From assembly GCA_018825305.1 (NCBI GenBank), contig JAHJEO010000003.1, forward strand, positions 53,931-117,930: 64,000 nt of DNA. The letters are read 5' to 3'. This stretch comes from Gammaproteobacteria bacterium (lineage in GTDB: Bacteria; Pseudomonadota; Gammaproteobacteria; Burkholderiales; Rhodocyclaceae). The notes under the pieces were generated by a model. That model ran no database searches. It was not told where the DNA came from and worked only from the letters and a program-made list of their open reading frames with translations. A program made the translations under genes and the position numbers. This document shows positions 3,981-50,835 of the stretch, one piece after another; within the stretch, counting starts at the first letter, position 1, and every line of letters begins with the position of its first letter.

Positions 3981-5516
3981 CTATTCCGCTTGGCCGCGAA
4001 AGTCGCGCGGGCGAAAGCCGAGTAGCGCGAGCGTGGCAAAGTAGACGGCGATACCCGCGGCCACGGTCAGCGACAGACGCAGAATGCGTTCGCCGAAAGC
4101 CATGGTGAGCCAGGCGGATTCGCTGCCCATGGCGAACCAGAGGGTGGCGCCCAGGGCGAGCAGTGCGACCGCGATGCGTGACGAGAAGCCGATCCATCCA
4201 GCCGCCGGAACGAATACGCCGTTGCGGCGCAGGCCGCGGTAGAGCAGGGCGGCATTGAGGCAGGAAGCCAGTCCGATCGACAAGGCTAGTCCGGCGTGCT
4301 TGATCCAGCCGATGAAGGCGAGGTTCATCGCCTGCGTCGCGGCAAGGGTGATCAGCGCGATTTTCACCGGCGTGCGGATGTCCTGCCGGGCGTAGAAGCC
4401 GGGCGCCAGTATCTTGACCAGGATCAGCCCGGTCAGCCCGACGCTGTAGGCAACCAAGGCTGCACGCGTCTGCAGCACGTCGTTCGCGGTGAAAGCGCCG
4501 TGCTGGAACAGCGTCGCCAGCAGTGGCACGGCGAGCATCGCCAGCGCCAGTGCCGCCGGTAGCGCCAGCAGCAGCGTCAGGCGCAGGCCCCAGTCGAGCA
4601 GGGTGGAGAAGTCGACCATGCGGTTCTCTGCGTGGGCCTTGGCCAGGCTGGGCAGCAGGATGGTGCCCAGTGCCGCCCCGAGCAGGCCTGCCGGAAACTC
4701 CATCAGCCGGTCGGCGTAATAGAGCCACGAGACCGAACCGGATTGCAGAAAGGAGGCGAAGATGGTGTTGATCAGCAGGGACACCTGGGCGACAGAAACG
4801 CCGAGCACGGCCGGCCCCATCAGCAGCAGGATGCGGTGCACGCCAGGATCGTGCGGCGACCAGTCCCAGCGCGGCAGCATGCCGATCTTCTTCAGTGCCG
4901 GCACTTGCAGTGCCAGTTGCAGCATGCCGCCGAGAAATACCGCCCAGGCCAGCGCCAGCACCGGTGGCTCGAACCAGGGCGCAGCGAACAGCGCCATGGC
5001 GATGAAGCTGAGGTTGAGCAGAGCGGGTGTGAACGCCGGCAGGGCGAAGCGGCGCCAGGTGTTGAGAATCCCAGCAGCCAGTGCGACCAGCGACATGAAC
5101 AGGATGTAGGGGAAGGTGATGCGGGTGAGTTCGACGGTCAGTGCGAACTTGTCGGCGTCGGCCGCAAAGCCGGGGGCCGAAACGTAGATCAGCAGCGGGG
5201 CGCCGGCGACGCCGAGCGCTGCCACGCCCATCAGGATGACAAACAACAGCGTGGCGACGCGGTCGACAAGCTGCTTTGTCTCGGCTTCGCCGCAGCGGGT
5301 GCGGGATTCGGCGAGAATCGGGACGAAGGCCTGCGAGAATGCGCCCTCGGCGAACAGCCGACGCAACAGGTTGGGCAGGCGGAAGGCGACGAAAAAGGCA
5401 TCGGTGAGCATGCCGGCGCCGAAGGTACGGGCGATGACGAAGTCGCGCACGAAGCCGAGCACGCGCGATAGCAGGGTCATGCCACTGACCGTGGCGAGCG
5501 TGCGCAGAAGATTCAT
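3981..5516 (-). CDS. murJ: lipid II flippase MurJ/MviN
   Basis: 511-aa polytopic ORF with an N-terminus typical of MurJ ([35 protein letters not shown]). Divergent from rpsT, as in many proteobacteria. Confidence 0.93.
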
Positions 5517-45783: not shown

Positions 45784-46599
45784 ATGTCGCGCATCCAAGC
45801 CAAGTTCGCCGCACTCAAGACCCAAGGCCGCAAGGCGCTGATCCCCTTCATTACCGCCGGAGACCCCGAACCGGGCCAGACCCTGCCGCTGATGCTCGCG
45901 CTGGTCGCCGGTGGCGCCGACATCATCGAACTTGGCGTACCCTTTTCCGATCCGATGGCCGATGGTCCGACCATCCAGCGTGCCTCTGAGCGGGCGCTGG
46001 CTTACGGCGTTTCGCTGCGCATTGTGCTCGGCATGGTGCGCGAGTTCCGCAAGCGTGACGCCGATACGCCGGTGGTGCTGATGGGCTACGCCAACCCGGT
46101 CGAAGCCTACGGCAGCGAGGCCTTCGCCCGCGATGCCAAGGCGGCCGGCGTCGATGGCGCGCTGATCGTCGATTACCCGCCCGAAGAATGTGCCGAGTTT
46201 GCCGCCACGCTCAAGTCGGCCGGACTCGATCCGATCTTCCTGCTGGCGCCGACGTCCGTGGAGACGCGCTTTGCCGAAGTTGGCGCCATGGGCAGCGGCT
46301 ACATCTACTACGTCTCGCTCAAGGGTGTCACTGGCTCGGCCGCCATCGACCTCGACGACGTGGCGCGGCGCATTCCCGCCATTCGCGACAAGGTTGGTTT
46401 GCCGGTCGGCGTCGGCTTCGGCATCCGTGATGCTGAAAGCGCGGCGCGGATCGCAGGCGTTGCCGATGCCGTGGTCATCGGTAGCCGCCTCATCGAAATC
46501 ATCGAACAGAGTCCGCCTGGCGAGGCCCCCGGGCGGGTCACGGAATTCCTCGGCGGCGTTCGCGCCGCCATGGATCAGAAAAGTGGGGTATCCGCATGA
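45784..46599 (+). CDS. trpA: tryptophan synthase alpha chain
   Basis: [30 protein letters not shown]...[17 protein letters not shown]. Confidence 0.96.
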
Positions 46600-47459
46600 G
46601 CTGGATCCAGAAACTGTTGCCGCCCAAGATCAAGCGCAGCGAGGGGGCGAAGAAGACCATCCCCGAAGGCCTTTGGTCGAAGTGCCCGGCTTGCGAGGCC
46701 GTCCTCTACAGCACCGACCTGGCAAGCAATCTCGGTGTCTGCCCCAAGTGCGGCCACCACCACCGCATGCGCGCCCGCACCCGGCTCGACCTGCTGCTCG
46801 ACAGCGAGGGGCGCTTCGAGATCGGCGCCGAGGTCATCCCGCTCGACCCGCTCAAGTTCAAGGACAGCAAGCGTTACTGCGACCGGTTGGCCGCGGCCAA
46901 TGCCGATACCGATGAAGCCGACGCGCTGATCGTGCTGCAGGGGGCGATCAAGACGGTACAGGTCGTCGTCGCCTGTTTCGAGTTCGAATTCATGGGCGGT
47001 TCGATGGGCTCCGTGGTGGGCGAACGCTTCGTTCGCGGCGTCAAGGCCGCCATCGAAAATCAGCTGCCCTTCATCTGTATTACCGCCTCGGGCGGTGCAC
47101 GGATGCAGGAGGGCCTGTTCTCGCTGATGCAGATGGCCAAGACCACGGCGGCGGCAACGCAGCTGGCGCGACATCAGCTGCCCTTCATCACCGTACTGAC
47201 CGACCCGACCATGGGCGGCGTGTCGGCGTCGTTCGCCTTCGTCGGCGACGTCGTGATCGCCGAACCCGGCGCACTGATCGGCTTCGCCGGTCCGCGCGTG
47301 ATCGAGCAGACCGTGCGCGAGAAACTGCCGGACGGCTTCCAGCGTTCCGAGTTTCTGCTCGAGAAGGGTGCAATCGACATGATCGTCGACCGCCGCGAGA
47401 TGCGCGATCGGATCGCCTCGGTGCTTACGCTTTTGCAGCGCGTTCCCGCCGTGCAGTGA
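46596..47459 (+). CDS. accD: acetyl-CoA carboxylase carboxyltransferase beta subunit
   Basis: Zn-ribbon CPACEAVLY...CPKCGHH plus the CT domain. ATGA overlap with trpA. Confidence 0.96.
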
Positions 47460-47472
47460 TGGATTGGACGCT

Positions 47473-47690
47473 TGCCGGGTCTCGCCCCGGCGGGCGAGGT
47501 ACTTTCTTGCTGCGCGGCAAGAAAGTACCCAAAGAAACGCGCCCCGCTACCCCGGCCCTACGGGCTTCCCTCGCTCCGTGCCATCAGTCCGGCCGGCCGC
47601 TAAACTCGCCTACGGCTCAGACAACGCGGCCGGACATCCCCGGACTGACGCCCCTCCACTCGGCGGGGCAGAGGGGACGGAAAACCGTCA
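47473..47690 (+). repeat. about 215-bp structured repeat, copy A (left arm of inverted pair)
   Basis: Roughly 90% identical by eye to the reverse complement of 49282..49492, with 1-2 indels. Contains hairpins CTCGCCC-cggc-GGGCGAG and GGTACTTTCTTGC-tgcgcg-GCAAGAAAGTACC. The similarity also shows as near-identical spurious peptides in ORFs 47456..47860 (+) and 49168..50157 / 49287..49493 (-). Confidence 0.85.
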
Positions 47691-47708
47691 CCAGCCCAAT
47701 GTCCGTCG

Positions 47709-47731
47709 CCGTGTCGCCAGCGCCGACTTTT
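47709..47731 (-). repeat. 23-nt word, near-canonical copy
   Basis: Plus strand reads CCGTGtCGCCAGCGCCGACTTTT. Non-coding, just inside the inner edge of repeat copy A. Confidence 0.85.
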
Positions 47732-47911
47732 TCAAGCGGCGGCTTGCGGCCAGAAACGGACCTTCGGACCTTCGCCCGAAAGCGGCCACTTGCCTTGGAA
47801 ATAATCCACATCTGTCCGGCATATTGGAGTTGTTATACTGACCGCCAGAACTACAAGTGACTGAAAGTCATGAACAAAGAACAGCGAAACCCGCGTCATC
47901 AATATCAATTG

Positions 47912-47937
47912 TTATACGGACCCCAGGGTCCGTGTAA
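47912..47937. promoter_or_regulatory. palindromic operator candidate upstream of brnT
   Basis: TTAtACGGACCC-ca-GGGTCCGTgTAA (11 of 12 positions pair per arm), about 65 nt upstream of the brnT ATG in AT-rich DNA. Confidence 0.45.
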
Positions 47938-48001
47938 ACACTGTTGAGGCCATCCATATCACCGTATGGCTTTTTGTATGGGCTAGTGCTACTCTGTGTC
48001 C

Positions 48002-48286
48002 ATGGCTAAAACTCGCTTTGATTGGGACCCAGACAAGGACGCCGAGAATCAGAGAAAGCACGGGGCCTCCTTCTCCCGTGCCCAGTACGCCTTTGCGGAC
48101 CCGCAACGCGTGATAGCCAAGGACGAGGCACACAGCCAAACCGAAGAACGGTTCTATTGCTTCGGCGAAGTTGACGGCGGTGTGCTCACGGTGCGGTTCA
48201 CTTACCGCGCTTCGGTTATTCGAATCATCGGGGCCGGTTATTGGCGAAAAGGAAAGGCGATCTATGAGCGCGAAAACGCAGCGTAG
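48002..48286 (+). CDS. brnT: BrnT-family (DUF497) type II toxin
   Basis: MAKTRFDWDPDKDAENQRKHGASFSRAQYAFADP...RIIGAGYWRKG matches the FxWDxxKxxxNxxKHG signature. Confidence 0.85.
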   Translation: MAKTRFDWDPDKDAENQRKHGASFSRAQYAFADPQRVIAKDEAHSQTEERFYCFGEVDGGVLTVRFTYRASVIRIIGAGYWRKGKAIYERENAA

Positions 48287-48611
48287 CGAAGTTTCAGAGA
48301 AGGCTAATGCCGGCTCAAGCCGGCGTTACGCCGAAACTAAAATTAAATACACCGATGAACCCCTTGGCAAAGTTCAGGTGGTTCCCGACTTTCTCCCCTC
48401 GCCGGCTGAGTTGGCATTTCGTGAAGAGGGTGTGAAAGTAACTCTGGCTTTGAGCAAAAAGAGCATCGAGTTCTTCAAGTCGGAGGCTTCAAAACATCAC
48501 ACTCAGTACCAGCGCATGATTCGCCGCCTTCTCGACGCTTACGTTGATGGCCAAGCCCCAACCCGGCAGTCCACACGGACGCTGCGCGACAAAGCCGCGC
48601 AGCGCCGGTGA
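48264..48611 (+). CDS. brnA: BrnA-family antitoxin (C-terminal RHH/CopG-like)
   Basis: Overlaps the brnT 3' end by 23 nt. VKVTLALSKKSIEFFKSEASKHHTQYQRMIRRLLDAYV is the BrnA pattern. Confidence 0.8.
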   Translation: MSAKTQRSEVSEKANAGSSRRYAETKIKYTDEPLGKVQVVPDFLPSPAELAFREEGVKVTLALSKKSIEFFKSEASKHHTQYQRMIRRLLDAYVDGQAPTRQSTRTLRDKAAQRR

Positions 48612-48632
48612 CTTTTACGTTGGGCCTAACAA

Positions 48633-49220
48633 ATGAGTCTTCAAAAATCACTCGGCAGAGCATTGCTCAGTTTCTACAAAAGAAGAAAGCAAGCCAGCTC
48701 CGATCTGAGCCTCGAAAACTGTCTCGACGCAGCCCGCGCTACTGCATCACGCACCAAGTATTGCTTTCTCGTCACGTCGGGAGAGCACGGGTGGCCGAGC
48801 GCCAGACTCGTTGAGCCTATATGCGATCTCGACGAATTTGACGTCTATATCGGCACCAACCCGGCGCTTCGAAAGATCAGGGAAATCTCTGCCTGTGCCA
48901 ATGTCACTTTGGCCTTCGGCAACCCTTCGGAGAAGGCAAACCTCATCATTTATGGCACCGCAACTTTCAGCGTCGAACCGGAGATCAAGCGCCGTTATTG
49001 GAAAAGTACGTGGCGGCTGTTTTTTTCCAGCGGTCCAAACGGCAACGACTATGCGGTCGTAAAGGTTCGAGCTGAGCGCATGGAACTCTTGAGTTTTCGG
49101 CGCAATGTAATCCCAGAGCCGTTCGGCCTATGCCCTGTTCTGCTCCAGAGGACACCACAAGGTTGGACTATGCAGGCCCAACAACCGCTTCCAGCCGACG
49201 CGGATTTGCCGCGCGGCTGA
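48633..49220 (+). CDS. pyridoxamine 5'-phosphate oxidase-like (general stress protein 26-like) FMN-binding protein
   Basis: 195 aa. The split-barrel-like core (YCFLVTSGEHGWPSARLVEP...VTLAFGNPSEKANLIIYGTATF...RYWKSTW) resembles the PNPOx-like family. Confidence 0.65.
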   Translation: MSLQKSLGRALLSFYKRRKQASSDLSLENCLDAARATASRTKYCFLVTSGEHGWPSARLVEPICDLDEFDVYIGTNPALRKIREISACANVTLAFGNPSEKANLIIYGTATFSVEPEIKRRYWKSTWRLFFSSGPNGNDYAVVKVRAERMELLSFRRNVIPEPFGLCPVLLQRTPQGWTMQAQQPLPADADLPRG

Positions 49221-49281
49221 AGCGGAGCGGTCTGAGCGTCGGCTTCCCCGTATCGCCAACTTCGGCTAAGGGTCGAGAGCC

Positions 49282-49492
49282 GACGGTTATCCCCTCTGCC
49301 CCGCCGAGTGGAGGGGCGTCAGTCCGGGGATGTCCGGTCGCGTTGTCTGAGCCGCAGGCGAGTTTAGCGGCCGGCCGGACTGGCGGCCCGGAGCGAGGGA
49401 AGTCGAAGGCCGGGGCAGCGGGGCGCGTTTCTTTGGTTTCTTTCTTGCCGCGCAGCAAGAAAGTACCTCGCCCGCCGGGGCGAGACCCGGCA
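49282..49492 (-). repeat. about 210-bp structured repeat, copy B (right arm of inverted pair)
   Basis: Reverse complement aligns with 47473..47690. It ends 38 nt before the folC start. Confidence 0.85.
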
Positions 49493-49530
49493 TGTGACCA
49501 GATACCGACGATGATGCAATCGAAGATCAA

Positions 49531-50835
49531 GTGACCGCACAACCCGACAACCTTCCCGGTTGGCTTGCCTATATCGAGCGCCAGCACGCCCAGCCGATCG
49601 CGCTGGGCCTCGACCGGGTGCGCGAAGTCAGCCGCCGCCTGGGTCAACGCCAGACTTGCCCGCTCATCCTCGTTGGCGGCACCAACGGCAAGGGCTCGAC
49701 CTGCGCCATGCTTGAGCGCATCCTGCTTTGCGCCGGCTACCGGGTCGGCCTCTACACCTCGCCGCATTTGCTCGCATACAACGAGCGCGTCCGCATCGAT
49801 GGCGTGGCTGTCGAAGATGCGCCGCTGCGTGCCGGTTTCGCCCGTGTCGAGGCTGCCAGAATCGACGGCAACGATGTACCGCTGACCTATTTCGAATTCG
49901 GCACGCTGGCAGCGTGGGAGGTGTTCGCGGCGCAGGCTTTGGATGTCGTCATCCTCGAAGTCGGTCTCGGCGGCCGCCTCGACGCCACCAACATCTATGA
50001 GCCGGATGTCGCCATCGTCACCAGCGTCGACATGGATCACATGGACTACCTCGGCGCCACGCGCGAGGCCATCGGTTTCGAAAAAGCCGGGATATTCCGC
50101 GCCGGCCGGCCGGCCATCTGCGGCGATGCCGATCCGCCGGCCAGCCTGGTGGAACATTGCCGTACCGCCGGCGCCGACTTTTTGCAGATCGGCCGCGACT
50201 TCGGCTACGTGCGGCAGGAGGGCCAGTGGCAGTACTGGGGCTCGGGCGGAAAGCGTTCCGGCCTGGCGTTTCCGGCCTTGCGCGGCGCGGTGCAGTTGGG
50301 CAACGCGGCCTGCGTGCTGGCTGCGCTCGATACGCTACGCGAGAAACTGCCGGTGGCGATGCAGGAGGTCCGCCGCGGCTTGCTCGAAGTCGAACTGCCC
50401 GGGCGCTTCCAGGTGCTGCCGGGGCAACCGACGCTGGTGCTCGACGTCGCCCACAACCCGCAGGCGGCGCGCGTGCTGGCGGACAGCCTCGGCGGCATGG
50501 CCTTCCACCCCGTCACCTGGGCCGTGTTCGGCATGCTGGCGGACAAGGACATTCCCGCCGTGATCGAGGCGATCAAGCACCGCGTCGATGTCTGGCTGCC
50601 CTGCACGCTCGAAGGCACCCGTGCCGCCAGCGCCGACTTTCTGGCGCAGGCGCTGGAGGCTTCCGGCTGCAAGGTCGGCGGCCGTTTCGCAACGCCGGCG
50701 GAAGCCCTCCGGGAAGCGCAGGCCCGGGCGAATGAAGATGATAGAATCCTCGCCTTCGGATCTTTCCTGACGGTTGCCGAGGTTCTGCGCGCACGAGCCC
50801 CAAAGCGAATGGCGAATGGCGAAAATTTCGACTGA
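49531..50835 (+). CDS. folC: bifunctional folylpolyglutamate synthase / dihydrofolate synthase
   Basis: GTG start; LILVGGTNGKGSTCAML P-loop; 434 aa. Confidence 0.93.
   Translation: MTAQPDNLPGWLAYIERQHAQPIALGLDRVREVSRRLGQRQTCPLILVGGTNGKGSTCAMLERILLCAGYRVGLYTSPHLLAYNERVRIDGVAVEDAPLRAGFARVEAARIDGNDVPLTYFEFGTLAAWEVFAAQALDVVILEVGLGGRLDATNIYEPDVAIVTSVDMDHMDYLGATREAIGFEKAGIFRAGRPAICGDADPPASLVEHCRTAGADFLQIGRDFGYVRQEGQWQYWGSGGKRSGLAFPALRGAVQLGNAACVLAALDTLREKLPVAMQEVRRGLLEVELPGRFQVLPGQPTLVLDVAHNPQAARVLADSLGGMAFHPVTWAVFGMLADKDIPAVIEAIKHRVDVWLPCTLEGTRAASADFLAQALEASGCKVGGRFATPAEALREAQARANEDDRILAFGSFLTVAEVLRARAPKRMANGENFD
50160..50182 (-). repeat. 23-nt word, degenerate copy
   Basis: Plus strand reads CCGTaCCGCCgGCGCCGACTTTT, in folC (encodes RTAGADF). 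Confidence 0.55.
50619..50641 (-). repeat. 23-nt word, near-canonical copy
   Basis: Plus strand reads CCGTGCCGCCAGCGCCGACTTTc, in folC (encodes RAASADF). Confidence 0.85.

Follow-up and report, generated by a model that had tools for sequence, protein, structure and literature searches.

A palindrome-framed insertion between accD and folC belongs to a betaproteobacterial family with stable sites and changing, mostly defence-type cargo

A 64,000-nt stretch of the genome of a Rhodocyclaceae bacterium (contig JAHJEO010000003.1, positions 53,931 to 117,930; hereafter the window) carries an insert between the core genes accD and folC, which was first noticed in a reading of the letters alone (hereafter the sequence-only reading). 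Two inverted arms of about 205 nt frame a low-GC core with a putative toxin-antitoxin (TA) pair and a flavoprotein-like gene. Comparison with related genomes places the insert in a family of long palindromes dispersed across Betaproteobacteria, in which the arms stay at a chromosomal site and the centre holds different genes in different genera, mostly predicted anti-phage defence or TA genes. The arms have a conserved folded structure, and neither a recombinase nor a target-site duplication accompanies the elements. The family can be read as a site-stable, cargo-variable cassette holder, whose arms would act as portable homology for the homologous recombination of the host; to this reading we give an even chance. 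The mechanism of exchange, the insulation of the cargo and the route of folC expression are offered below as proposals.

A family of long palindromes with a central bay

The family was collected with a 27-nt pattern of the arm tip, applied to one genome per GTDB species. The pattern found 46 loci in GTDB representatives (referred to here by L numbers), mostly in Sulfuritalea, Sulfurisoma, Sterolibacterium, Georgfuchsia, Candidatus (Ca.) Nitricoxidireducens and further Rhodocyclaceae, with others in Ottowia and Paenacidovorax. At least 22 of the 46 loci have a plus-strand arm followed by a minus-strand arm, 0.48-4.6 kb apart. Most arms that appear to stand alone border on low-GC DNA that extends past the end of the 8-kb piece examined. 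A blastn search of the arm against plasmids reached Comamonas and Variovorax replicons, where the tips end gene-free intergenic palindromes of 585 and 706 bp, and a Variovorax-arm query matched 147 records of plasmids or chromids at the tip region; Ralstonia megaplasmids make up 134 of these. More than one copy can be present per genome: at least three in Ca. Nitricoxidireducens (L006, L009, L026), several in each Sulfuritalea metagenome-assembled genome (MAG), and two to nine places per Ralstonia megaplasmid. No arm tips were found in IMG/VR viral contigs.

Empty copies of the element, present in Rhodocyclaceae, Ottowia, Variovorax, Comamonas and Ralstonia, are single palindromes of 475-710 bp (L049, 475 bp; L011, about 610 bp; L001; L002; and L131 of Ralstonia GMI1000, 524 bp with 219-nt arms). 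[quoted passage not shown] The sequence-only reading had favoured a composite element or a cassette captured by a MITE pair; that picture gives way to the single-palindrome form of the empty copies, to a cargo that is always central, and to the lack, on either single arm, of terminal inverted repeats or a duplication of its own. Its suggestion that the element is non-autonomous is supported, and the element itself carries no recombinase. No target-site duplication was found at about 20 related elements, where the inverted repeat usually continues outward; in a Sulfuritalea-type subfamily, two copies of the motif GCCGTnnCGCCAGCGCCGACTTTT in inverted orientation form part of this extension.

Two short-read contigs from public sequencing runs stop about 27-30 nt into an arm (L004, which ends at window position 47499, and L136, which ends at window position 49319), and many family loci lie at contig ends. 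Assemblies thus break at the arms, and MAGs probably under-represent the family. No description of the family, or of defence cargo inside long palindromes, was found in the literature, although coverage was incomplete; the family appears to be previously unrecognised, with a prior description possible.

Stable sites and changing cargo

The accD/folC site itself illustrates the behaviour of the family. Compared at its accD-side end, locus L040 of a Sulfurisoma MAG encodes an AccD 91% identical to that of the window, and its arm starts 13 nt past the accD stop, as in the window (the junctions read TGATGGGTTTGGCGCT in L040 and TGATGGATTGGACGCT in the window, each followed by TGCCGGG). The two loci are homologous from accD across the arm and for about 100 nt past it, up to about 47752-47780, where the homology ends (blastn 47301-47752). 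In L006, from Ca. Nitricoxidireducens, an element likewise separates folC from the accD side, and its cargo includes a TIR protein. Three cargos are thus found at one site in three genera: BrnT/BrnA-like/PNPOx in the window, a PLD-helicase in L040 and TIR in L006. Variable gene content between the same core flanks, without mobility genes, is the pattern by which minimal mobile elements (MMEs) and defence hotspots are recognised, and it is the pattern at accD/folC. The arms at this site appear to predate the split of the source organism, Sulfurisoma and Ca. Nitricoxidireducens, and the short open reading frame (ORF) and GTG start of folC in L006, described below, point to one ancestral insertion.

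When the 1.2-kb flanks of all elements were compared, at least seven other sets of orthologous sites were found at which the cargo differs (L014/L022/L023, L027/L029/L031, L032/L039, L019/L007, L037/L030, L034/L036/L048 and L049/L035). The last of these, L049/L035, is an empty and a filled copy at one site. The sequence-only reading had described how an old and inert insertion would look: the same insertion in relatives, with repeats unique to the locus. Instead, the site is shared and the cargo differs, and the arms are dispersed over 46 loci and the Ralstonia megaplasmids. Because relatives carry different cargo at the same site and the arms belong to a dispersed family, the element is, on these comparisons, old at accD/folC yet not inert. 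An inert relic, that is, an old and fixed insertion without continuing activity, would fit the ancestral presence in three genera and the absence of a mobility gene. However, three cargos at one site, one of them a mosaic (see below), already contradict a relic, and the arms are conserved about as well as coding DNA (88-91% against 87% in neighbouring coding DNA) and keep their pairing. We regard this explanation as highly improbable.

Cargo and arms also recur at unrelated sites. The PDC-S14 cassette of L041 is found again in L030, 87% identical and between different flanks; the homologous stretch takes in both arms and stops 46 nt beyond the tip. An arm of L019, at another site in Sulfurisoma sediminicola, matches the window arm at 94% identity, against 91% for the orthologous L040 arm. 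The position of the homology breakpoints varies among the pairs window/L040, window/L136 and L041/L030.

These comparisons bear on a further alternative, in which the family would be a non-autonomous transposon, of the type of the mobile insertion cassettes (MICs) or of MITEs with long terminal inverted repeats, with arms that serve a transposase encoded elsewhere and cargos captured independently. Dispersal over many intergenic sites in several betaproteobacterial families, the MITE-like appearance of the empty forms, the strongly conserved tip, the frequent breaking of contigs at arms, and the presence of the same cargo with both arms at non-orthologous sites, with homology ending just outside the tips, would all be expected of such an element. 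However, the roughly 20 elements without a target-site duplication argue against it, and no transposase or integrase was found in the at least 22 complete elements, and no transposase in the inner flanks of solitary arms. Furthermore, the arms are about ten times longer than usual terminal inverted repeats and are conserved as a folded structure, and orthologous sites keep their arms and change their cargo, with breakpoints that are internal and not at the ends. A transposon is therefore considered unlikely.

What the bays hold

In at least 22 filled copies, which come from Sulfuritalea, Sulfurisoma, Sterolibacterium and their relatives, cargo that is 0.5-4 kb long and low in GC sits at the centre of the palindrome. 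The core is poorer in GC than its flanks in all 22 filled loci examined, which include the window's own locus, L003 (0.48-0.58 against 0.58-0.70). The cores have no DNA in common, with the exception of L041/L030, L034/L031 and two short matches. Annotated with Pfam and PADLOC, the cargo appears to consist mostly of anti-phage defence or TA genes, as in the following loci (match values in brackets); roughly one third of the scanned cargo genes match no Pfam or PADLOC family.

L016: fused PARIS AriAB (5e-138)
L040: PLD-helicase, a 935-aa PLD-SNF2 helicase (9e-234)
L041: PDC-S14 (2e-102)
L029: PDC-S31 and a NYN/OST-HTH protein (1.5e-28 / 6.4e-31)
L006: TIR protein (7.5e-24, PDC-S66); a membrane protein is also present
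L010: SIR2-like protein and an HNH type IV restriction enzyme (6.4e-07 / 2.2e-23)
L044: PtuA-like ATPase (4.4e-29)
L025: PycC-like cyclase (1.1e-15)
L038: Abi_alpha (2e-20)
L022 and L026: Mrr domains (9e-13 / 2.6e-07)
L032: T5orf172 (3e-07)
L027: HIRAN (1.6e-06)
L042: Phd/YoeB (1.9e-19 / 9.3e-10)

The cargo of the window element comprises a leader and three genes, all co-oriented with the accD-folC operon:

47781..48001, +: AT-rich cargo leader, possibly a promoter or operator region (GC 0.45 in 47800-47999)
48002..48286, +: brnT toxin gene (Pfam BrnT_toxin, E = 3.8e-23)
48264..48611, +: brnA-like antitoxin candidate, overlapping the end of brnT by 23 nt (sub-threshold BrnA_antitoxin match)
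48633..49220, +: PNPOx-like flavoprotein gene of the general stress protein 26 type (Pfam PNPOx_N, E = 2e-12)

The sequence-only reading had named a BrnT/BrnA pair and a PNPOx-like gene. The toxin and the flavoprotein are confirmed by the Pfam matches listed, whereas the BrnA_antitoxin match of the second ORF remains below threshold (18 bits against a cutoff of 26.1, E = 0.0036) and no NCBIfam entry matches it. Its identity as BrnA rests mainly on position, with a gene order and a 23-nt overlap that fit a BrnT/BrnA type II TA system. The leader contains direct repeats, TTGTTATAC(T/G)GACC, at 47830-47843 and 47909-47922, as well as a perfect palindrome, ACGGACCCCAGGGTCCGT (ACGGACCC-CA-GGGTCCGT), at 47916-47933. 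Upstream of brnT, these are plausible candidate operator sites for TA autoregulation. A strict sigma-70 scan of the leader gave no match.

The window cargo is, by comparison with L136, a mosaic. This 1.8-kb contig from a related sample has an identical PNPOx gene, and its homology to the window begins at 48576. Upstream of PNPOx, positions 1-1084 of L136 hold two unrelated genes, without Pfam or NCBIfam matches, in place of brnT and the brnA-like ORF. The breakpoint falls inside the 3′ end of the brnA-like ORF, the last 12 codons of which come from the segment shared with L136. Homologues of the PNPOx protein (60-82% identity) were examined in three contexts, which are ordinary and have neither arms nor a TA pair, as would be the case for an ordinary gene captured by the window element.

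The insertion at the accD/folC junction

The sequence-only reading described an insertion into a conserved junction, and comparison with relatives bears this out. In 80 metagenomic loci related by AccD, the accD-folC gap is usually 0-60 nt. The five closest element-free relatives (80-85% AccD identity) have gaps of -3 to 38 nt, and in four of the five the genes overlap as TGATG. Wider gaps (300-1540 nt) in more distant relatives contain no family arms and no matching inverted repeats. Judged by these gene spacings, the 2,071 nt between accD and folC in the window are an insertion into a closed, conserved junction. Its boundaries are as follows:

46596..47459, +: accD, left flanking core gene (Pfam Carboxyl_trans, Zn_ribbon_ACC); its TGA stop directly abuts the element
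47460..47472, +: T/G-rich box TGGATTGGACGCT, probably the element's outer edge (weakly matches 49493-49505 in inverted orientation)
47473..47677, +: left arm (alignment, blastn; nhmmer family profile, 204 bits)
47678..47780, +: inner spacer, homologous to the orthologous Sulfurisoma element (L040); cargo-specific DNA starts beyond it
49290..49492, -: right arm, with the same hairpins (repeat search, alignment, blastn, nhmmer); its terminator-like site at 49486-49465 reads inward
49493..49505, -: T/G-rich box at the outer right edge (reads GTATCTGGTCACA as the reverse complement; identified from sequence)

The inverted arms of about 210 bp that had been described are confirmed at 205 nt and 93.7% identity (blastn), with one 2-nt indel, as are the distances of 13 nt from the accD stop to the left arm and 38 nt from the right arm to the folC GTG at 49531. 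A repeat search resolved the arms into two blocks separated by the indel, one of 113 nt (47565-47677/49290-49402, 96%) and one of 93 nt (47465-47557/49408-49500, 94%); by pairwise alignment the common inverted block is 47473-47677 against 49290-49492. A weak inverted repeat extends inward to about 47690 and about 49277, and outward by about 13 nt (47460-47472, 49493-49505). Boxes of the form (G)ATGGNTTTGGC..T precede TGCCGGG in L040, L019, L007, L009, L026, L035 and L006, and homology between the window and L019 begins at 47464. Because the T/G-rich box precedes TGCCGGG even at non-orthologous sites, the window element probably spans 47460-49505 and starts directly after the accD stop. Pattern searches and an nhmmer profile of 35 family arms found no third arm copy in the window.

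The AT-richer core that had been noted is evident as well, with a GC content of 0.45-0.59 against 0.61-0.72 in the flanks in 200-nt windows, and 0.55 against 0.66 overall. The earlier statement that integrase, transposase, tRNA and a clear target-site duplication are all missing also stands: the window element has no transposase or integrase ORF, the whole window has no tRNA or tmRNA, and no duplication was found at either the TGCCGGG boundary or the extended boundary of the window element. A TGATG repeated near both ends of the element was considered as a duplication and set aside, as it gives no consistent folC frame. The arms match no Rfam family, with the whole window searched at gathering thresholds and 47300-49700 at E <= 10; in the latter region weak and insignificant matches are confined to the cargo. 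A weak match, probably due to chance, lies between the PNPOx gene and the right arm, at 49188-49246, to the Pseudomonas small RNA P36 (22 bits against a gathering threshold of 36; E = 0.19). The neighbouring genes are truA, trpF, trpB, trpA and accD on the left, and folC, a dedD-like gene (SPOR), cvpA and purF on the right.

Structure of the arms

Both arms contain the same folded elements, which are given here for the left arm:

47479..47500, +: hairpin 1 (GTCTCGCCCCGGCGGGCGAGGT) followed by ACTTTCTTGC, intrinsic-terminator-like and reading into the element; stem invariant in 35 arms
47498..47529, +: hairpin 2, GGTACTTTCTTGC-TGCGCG-GCAAGAAAGTACC; stem kept by compensatory changes
47585..47647, +: two-tier long stem (CAGTCCGG/CCGGACTG and CCGGCCGC/GCGGCCGG), which closes the loop that holds the conserved boxes, TAAACTCGC and TCAGACAAC

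A consensus fold of 35 aligned arms, obtained with RNAalifold, consists of the invariant GC hairpin at the tip, the second hairpin (ACTTTCTTG.../...CAAGAAAGT), a small hairpin, the two-tier stem with its loop, and a closing helix that pairs the tip (TGCCGGG) with CTCGGCG near the inner end. In this structure, which was derived from the same 35-arm alignment on which its pairing was then tested, 98.6% of cells are paired and seven pairs show compensatory changes, a level of pairing and covariation reached by 0 of 500 shuffles (slid controls gave 37-51%). Hairpin 2 changes from CG to UA in 12 of the 35 arms, and has other stems in Variovorax, Comamonas, Ralstonia and L049. The sequences of the two-tier stem vary among genera, whereas the loop boxes are conserved (AAACTCGC..TCAGACA). 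Single-sequence folds of the Variovorax, Ralstonia, Ottowia, Comamonas and L049 arms show the same two-tier stem, built from wholly different stem sequences, around the same loop boxes. These folds replaced a MAFFT alignment of the stem-loop across the distant genera, in which the stems were mis-registered and the consensus was meaningless. Both strands of the window arm fold better than shuffled sequences (z = -4.9 and -3.3), so that the data are compatible with either strand, and with DNA or RNA, as the form that matters. ORFs that run through the arms (LLRGKKVPKETRP...) were rejected as genes, as related arms differ by frameshifts.

Such structures could be the sites of a hairpin-directed cassette system, in which the folded single strands of the arms would be recognised by an unlinked enzyme, either an integron-type tyrosine recombinase or an HUH/Y1 nuclease of the kind associated with repetitive extragenic palindromic (REP) sequences or IS200 (RAYT-/IS200-like), which would insert or exchange cassettes at the centre of the palindrome. 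Compensatory changes that keep the structure, loop boxes that are constant across genera, the absence of a target-site duplication, as in single-strand transposition, and a low-GC, often single-gene TA or defence cargo that resembles chromosomal integron cassettes are in keeping with this model. It is harder to reconcile with the absence of an integrase or HUH gene from the window element and every related element; nor do the gene tables list an integron integrase in the window element or its immediate neighbours. By eye, the cargo boundaries show no attC cores (GTTRRRY/RYYYAAC, the R/L core boxes), and the arms are in inverted and not direct order. Moreover, the cargo boundaries are not fixed, as homology to L040 ends about 100 nt inside the arm and the L136 breakpoint lies within the brnA-like ORF. 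Taken together, we consider this model distinctly unlikely.

Partner arms are mostly each other's best match (90-97%), which is compatible with arm-to-arm recombination or gene conversion. Two elements of Ca. Nitricoxidireducens, L009 (3273-4421) and L026 (1881-3369), come from adjacent 8-kb pieces of one contig and lie 5.5 kb apart. Their hairpin-2 types are symmetric, with GTCAC in the outer arms and GGTAC in the inner arms, an arrangement that is not derivable from a single inversion and that hints at recombination between the arms of neighbouring elements. As an account of these tip types and of the flanks of L015/L016/L042, rearrangement was set aside, MAG misassembly at repeats being equally good. 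Some arms contain an extra repeat of about 70 nt at the same point (L010, about 2041-2116; L014, about 4790-4861; L034, about 4942-5014; and the right arm of L047); this repeat, GGAGGGCTCGCCAGAG..CGCAAGGCC..GGCCTTGCGAAA.., is a small palindromic element nested in the arm.

Possible consequences for folC

The insertion separates two genes that overlap in most close relatives, and the right end of the element is followed by a short ORF that runs into folC:

49511..49534, +: mini-ORF ATGATGCAATCGAAGATCAAGTGA (MMQSKIK*), the stop of which overlaps the folC GTG as GTGA
49531..50835, +: folC, right flanking core gene (Pfam Mur_ligase_M, Mur_ligase_C), now with a GTG start

The N-terminus of the window FolC aligns with FolC of empty-site relatives. 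A likeness of the arm tip CGCTTGCCGGGTC to the 5′ end of folC at empty sites (CGCTTGCCCGATC in L054) is probably a coincidence of GC-rich sequence, since further downstream the genuine N-terminus of FolC is intact. In L006, at about 4948-4980 on the minus strand, a different mini-ORF shows, by eye, the same GTGA overlap before the folC GTG.

By its position, the insertion would have severed folC from translational coupling to accD. The tip hairpin with its ACTTTCTTGC scores as terminator-like in the inward direction in both arms; in the outward direction no T-run follows. Because a terminator-like hairpin faces inward in each arm, the sequence suggests that read-through from accD is blocked at the left tip in either orientation of the cargo; accD transcripts would then end at about 47500, and folC would be transcribed from within a co-oriented cassette. 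The mini-ORF at 49511-49534 would restore translational coupling for folC, and the mini-ORFs of the window and L006 may be replacements for the lost accD-folC coupling. An essential operon would in this way have adapted to the insertion, with folC now dependent on a GTG start behind a small coupled ORF.

The inward hairpins also bear on a RecA-dependent invertible cassette, an idea of the sequence-only reading, in which recombination between the arms would flip the core and switch the expression of the cargo and of folC-purF. Inverted repeats of 205 nt at 94% identity are adequate RecA substrates, the partner arms evolve in concert, and the cargo is co-oriented with the operon here. However, terminator-like hairpins that face inward would block outside transcription in either orientation, and a switch that silences the essential folC would be costly. 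No orientation variants occur among three large contigs with the same proteins, in which the gene order is identical, and no invertase was found at the window element, where the arms measure 205 nt against the short inverted repeats of site-specific invertons. Inversion also leaves the dominant pattern, the turnover of cargo, unaccounted for, and we judge this possibility very unlikely.

Proposed exchange by portable homology

Under the cassette-holder reading, the arms would persist at a chromosomal site while foreign low-GC genes, mostly of defence or TA type, take over the centre time and again. The arms, nearly identical across sites and related genomes, would serve together with the core flanks as portable homology, and an incoming cassette with its own arms would replace the resident one by homologous recombination of the host. 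Because the arms are inverted copies, replacement would be possible in either orientation. Recombination or gene conversion between arms would keep partners alike. The first entry of foreign DNA may have a different basis: in E. coli, SbcCD is known to cut extruded hairpins, and the centre of the palindrome would be prone to breakage and could be an entry point for foreign DNA, which once inserted would stabilise the palindrome. The cassette holder is preferred because it needs the fewest unknowns to accommodate the conserved and structured arms, the fixed site, the fast turnover of foreign cargo with its bias towards defence, the lack of a recombinase and of a duplication, and the breakpoints, which keep to no fixed nucleotide.

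Several points weigh against this preference. Homologous exchange explains turnover at occupied sites, and not the dispersal of the arms or the first entry of cargo. Nor does it account for the conservation of hairpins whose loop is sequence-specific; the compensatory changes and the constant loop point towards some factor that recognises a folded single strand, be it DNA or RNA, and plain homology has no need of this. No recombination event was directly observed, all comparisons being between MAGs or isolates of different genera, and misassembly at repeats could underlie some of the patterns of shared or changed flanks. The terminator assignment is no more than a match to a consensus, with an interrupted U-tract (ACUUUCUUG), and the cargo of the window itself has no PADLOC match. 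Since dispersal and hairpin conservation are left unexplained, a transposase acting in trans and a hairpin-specific enzyme stay live alternatives.

A broader model would join these elements into a cassette platform that is either recombinase-free or served in trans. Here the palindromes would be 'sockets' seeded at many betaproteobacterial sites, their arms would be read as folded single strands, and their centres would capture and trade defence genes, with capture either at extruded palindromes cut by SbcCD or by hairpin-specific recombination. This model is rather doubtful; if true, the platform would be functionally analogous to integrons but would rest on another principle.

Whatever the mode of exchange, how defence genes enter sites that lack a recombinase is poorly understood, and the arms mark such sites by a recognisable DNA structure. 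The arms can be used as a search handle, with the DNA between them as a list of candidate defence genes, and they allow a direct test of what mediates cassette exchange, homology alone or recognition of hairpins.

Dispersed motifs around the elements

The motif (a)tcGCCGTnnCGCCAGCGCCGACTTTT occurs in ten copies in the 64-kb window at up to 3 mismatches, against 0.01 expected, and in 14 when its two n positions are left free:

37, 9348, 12194, 13253, 17243, 17598, 19626, 27830, 35699, 42643, 47708, 50159, 50618 and 58333, both strands: dispersed motif, about 21-25 nt each (pattern search)
47708..47732, +: copy of the dispersed motif inside the element, GCCGTGTCGCCAGCGCCGACTTTTT

Copies are both intergenic and intragenic, including two in folC that both encode A-[GS]-A-D-F-L. 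In L040 and L037 a copy is found inside the edge of the arm; in at least 12 other elements copies stand outside both tips, and many members of the family are flanked by the motif as an inverted pair. In sequence and distribution it resembles a DNA uptake sequence or some comparable dispersed signal; we know of no such uptake-like motif described for the source lineage. A CGTC-tagged REP-like hairpin, GTCATTCC(C/G)GCGAA(A/G)GC(C/G)GGAATCCAG, lies between the outer motif and the tips in several Sulfuritalea loci, in the flanks of L008, L010, L029, L037, L041 and L044 (about 1655-1700 in L044), and is absent from the 64-kb window. The core of this hairpin, ATTCCC-N8-GGGAAT, is built like the dRS3 repeat of Neisseria.

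Comparison with known systems

The palindrome family resembles MICs (such as MIC231 of Bacillus cereus) and long MITEs in its inverted-repeat bounds, passenger genes, lack of a transposase, short gene-free forms, multiple copies and intergenic location. The ends of MICs and MITEs are short insertion sequence (IS) ends, flanked by target-site duplications and served by an identifiable cognate transposase. The palindrome family, in contrast, has arms of 205-230 nt with a conserved fold, no duplication, no cognate IS that could be found, and a fixed site at which the cargo changes. Composites bracketed by MITEs, such as integron mobilisation units and the MITE-flanked class 1 integrons of Acinetobacter, likewise enclose transposase-free genes between inverted non-coding repeats. 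Each MITE of such a composite is complete with its own terminal inverted repeats, and the composite has a 5-bp duplication, whereas in the palindrome family the two arms together are one unit.

Similar cargo is found in integron cassettes and in clusters of attC sites lacking integron-integrases (CALINs), which are also small, often single-gene, low in GC and rich in TA and defence genes, and in which the structure of the boundary is conserved more than its sequence. These differ in having one attC per cassette, direct arrays, dependence on IntI and defined R/L boxes, where the palindrome family has one bay, inverted arms and scattered sites. BrnT/BrnA pairs are among the cargo of the dif modules of Acinetobacter plasmids. 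Like the palindrome family, dif modules are discrete, often hold TA pairs, have inversely oriented bounding sites and are shuffled without encoding a recombinase (PMC6449649, PMC13141974). They differ in being carried on plasmids, in being bounded by XerC/XerD sites of 28 bp, and in the implication of a site-specific recombinase of the host; the arms showed no dif-like site.

Correia repeat-enclosed elements are likewise betaproteobacterial intergenic elements with inverted repeats and transcription signals. They are 100-150 bp long, are flanked by a duplication of the dinucleotide TA and enclose no genes. No sequence similarity of the palindrome family to Correia elements or MMEs was found. 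The MMEs of Neisseria hold variable genes between fixed conserved flanks, which are exchanged by homologous recombination without mobility genes (PMC3787668). A further likeness is that the genomes compared here contain an uptake-sequence-like dispersed motif as well as dRS3-like repeats. The cassette-holder reading follows the same logic and adds a dedicated portable flank, whereas MMEs have no dedicated repeat arms. Core-genome defence hotspots, such as the cDHS of Pseudomonas aeruginosa, also present different defence systems at the same core-flanked site (PMC10250203). Hotspots are defined by the flanking core genes alone, whereas the slots of the palindrome family are marked by a structured palindrome, with the same arms at many slots. 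Ultimately, among known kinds, the element is filed with bounded cassettes of the MIC/MITE type, with a proposed exchange in the manner of MMEs or defence hotspots.

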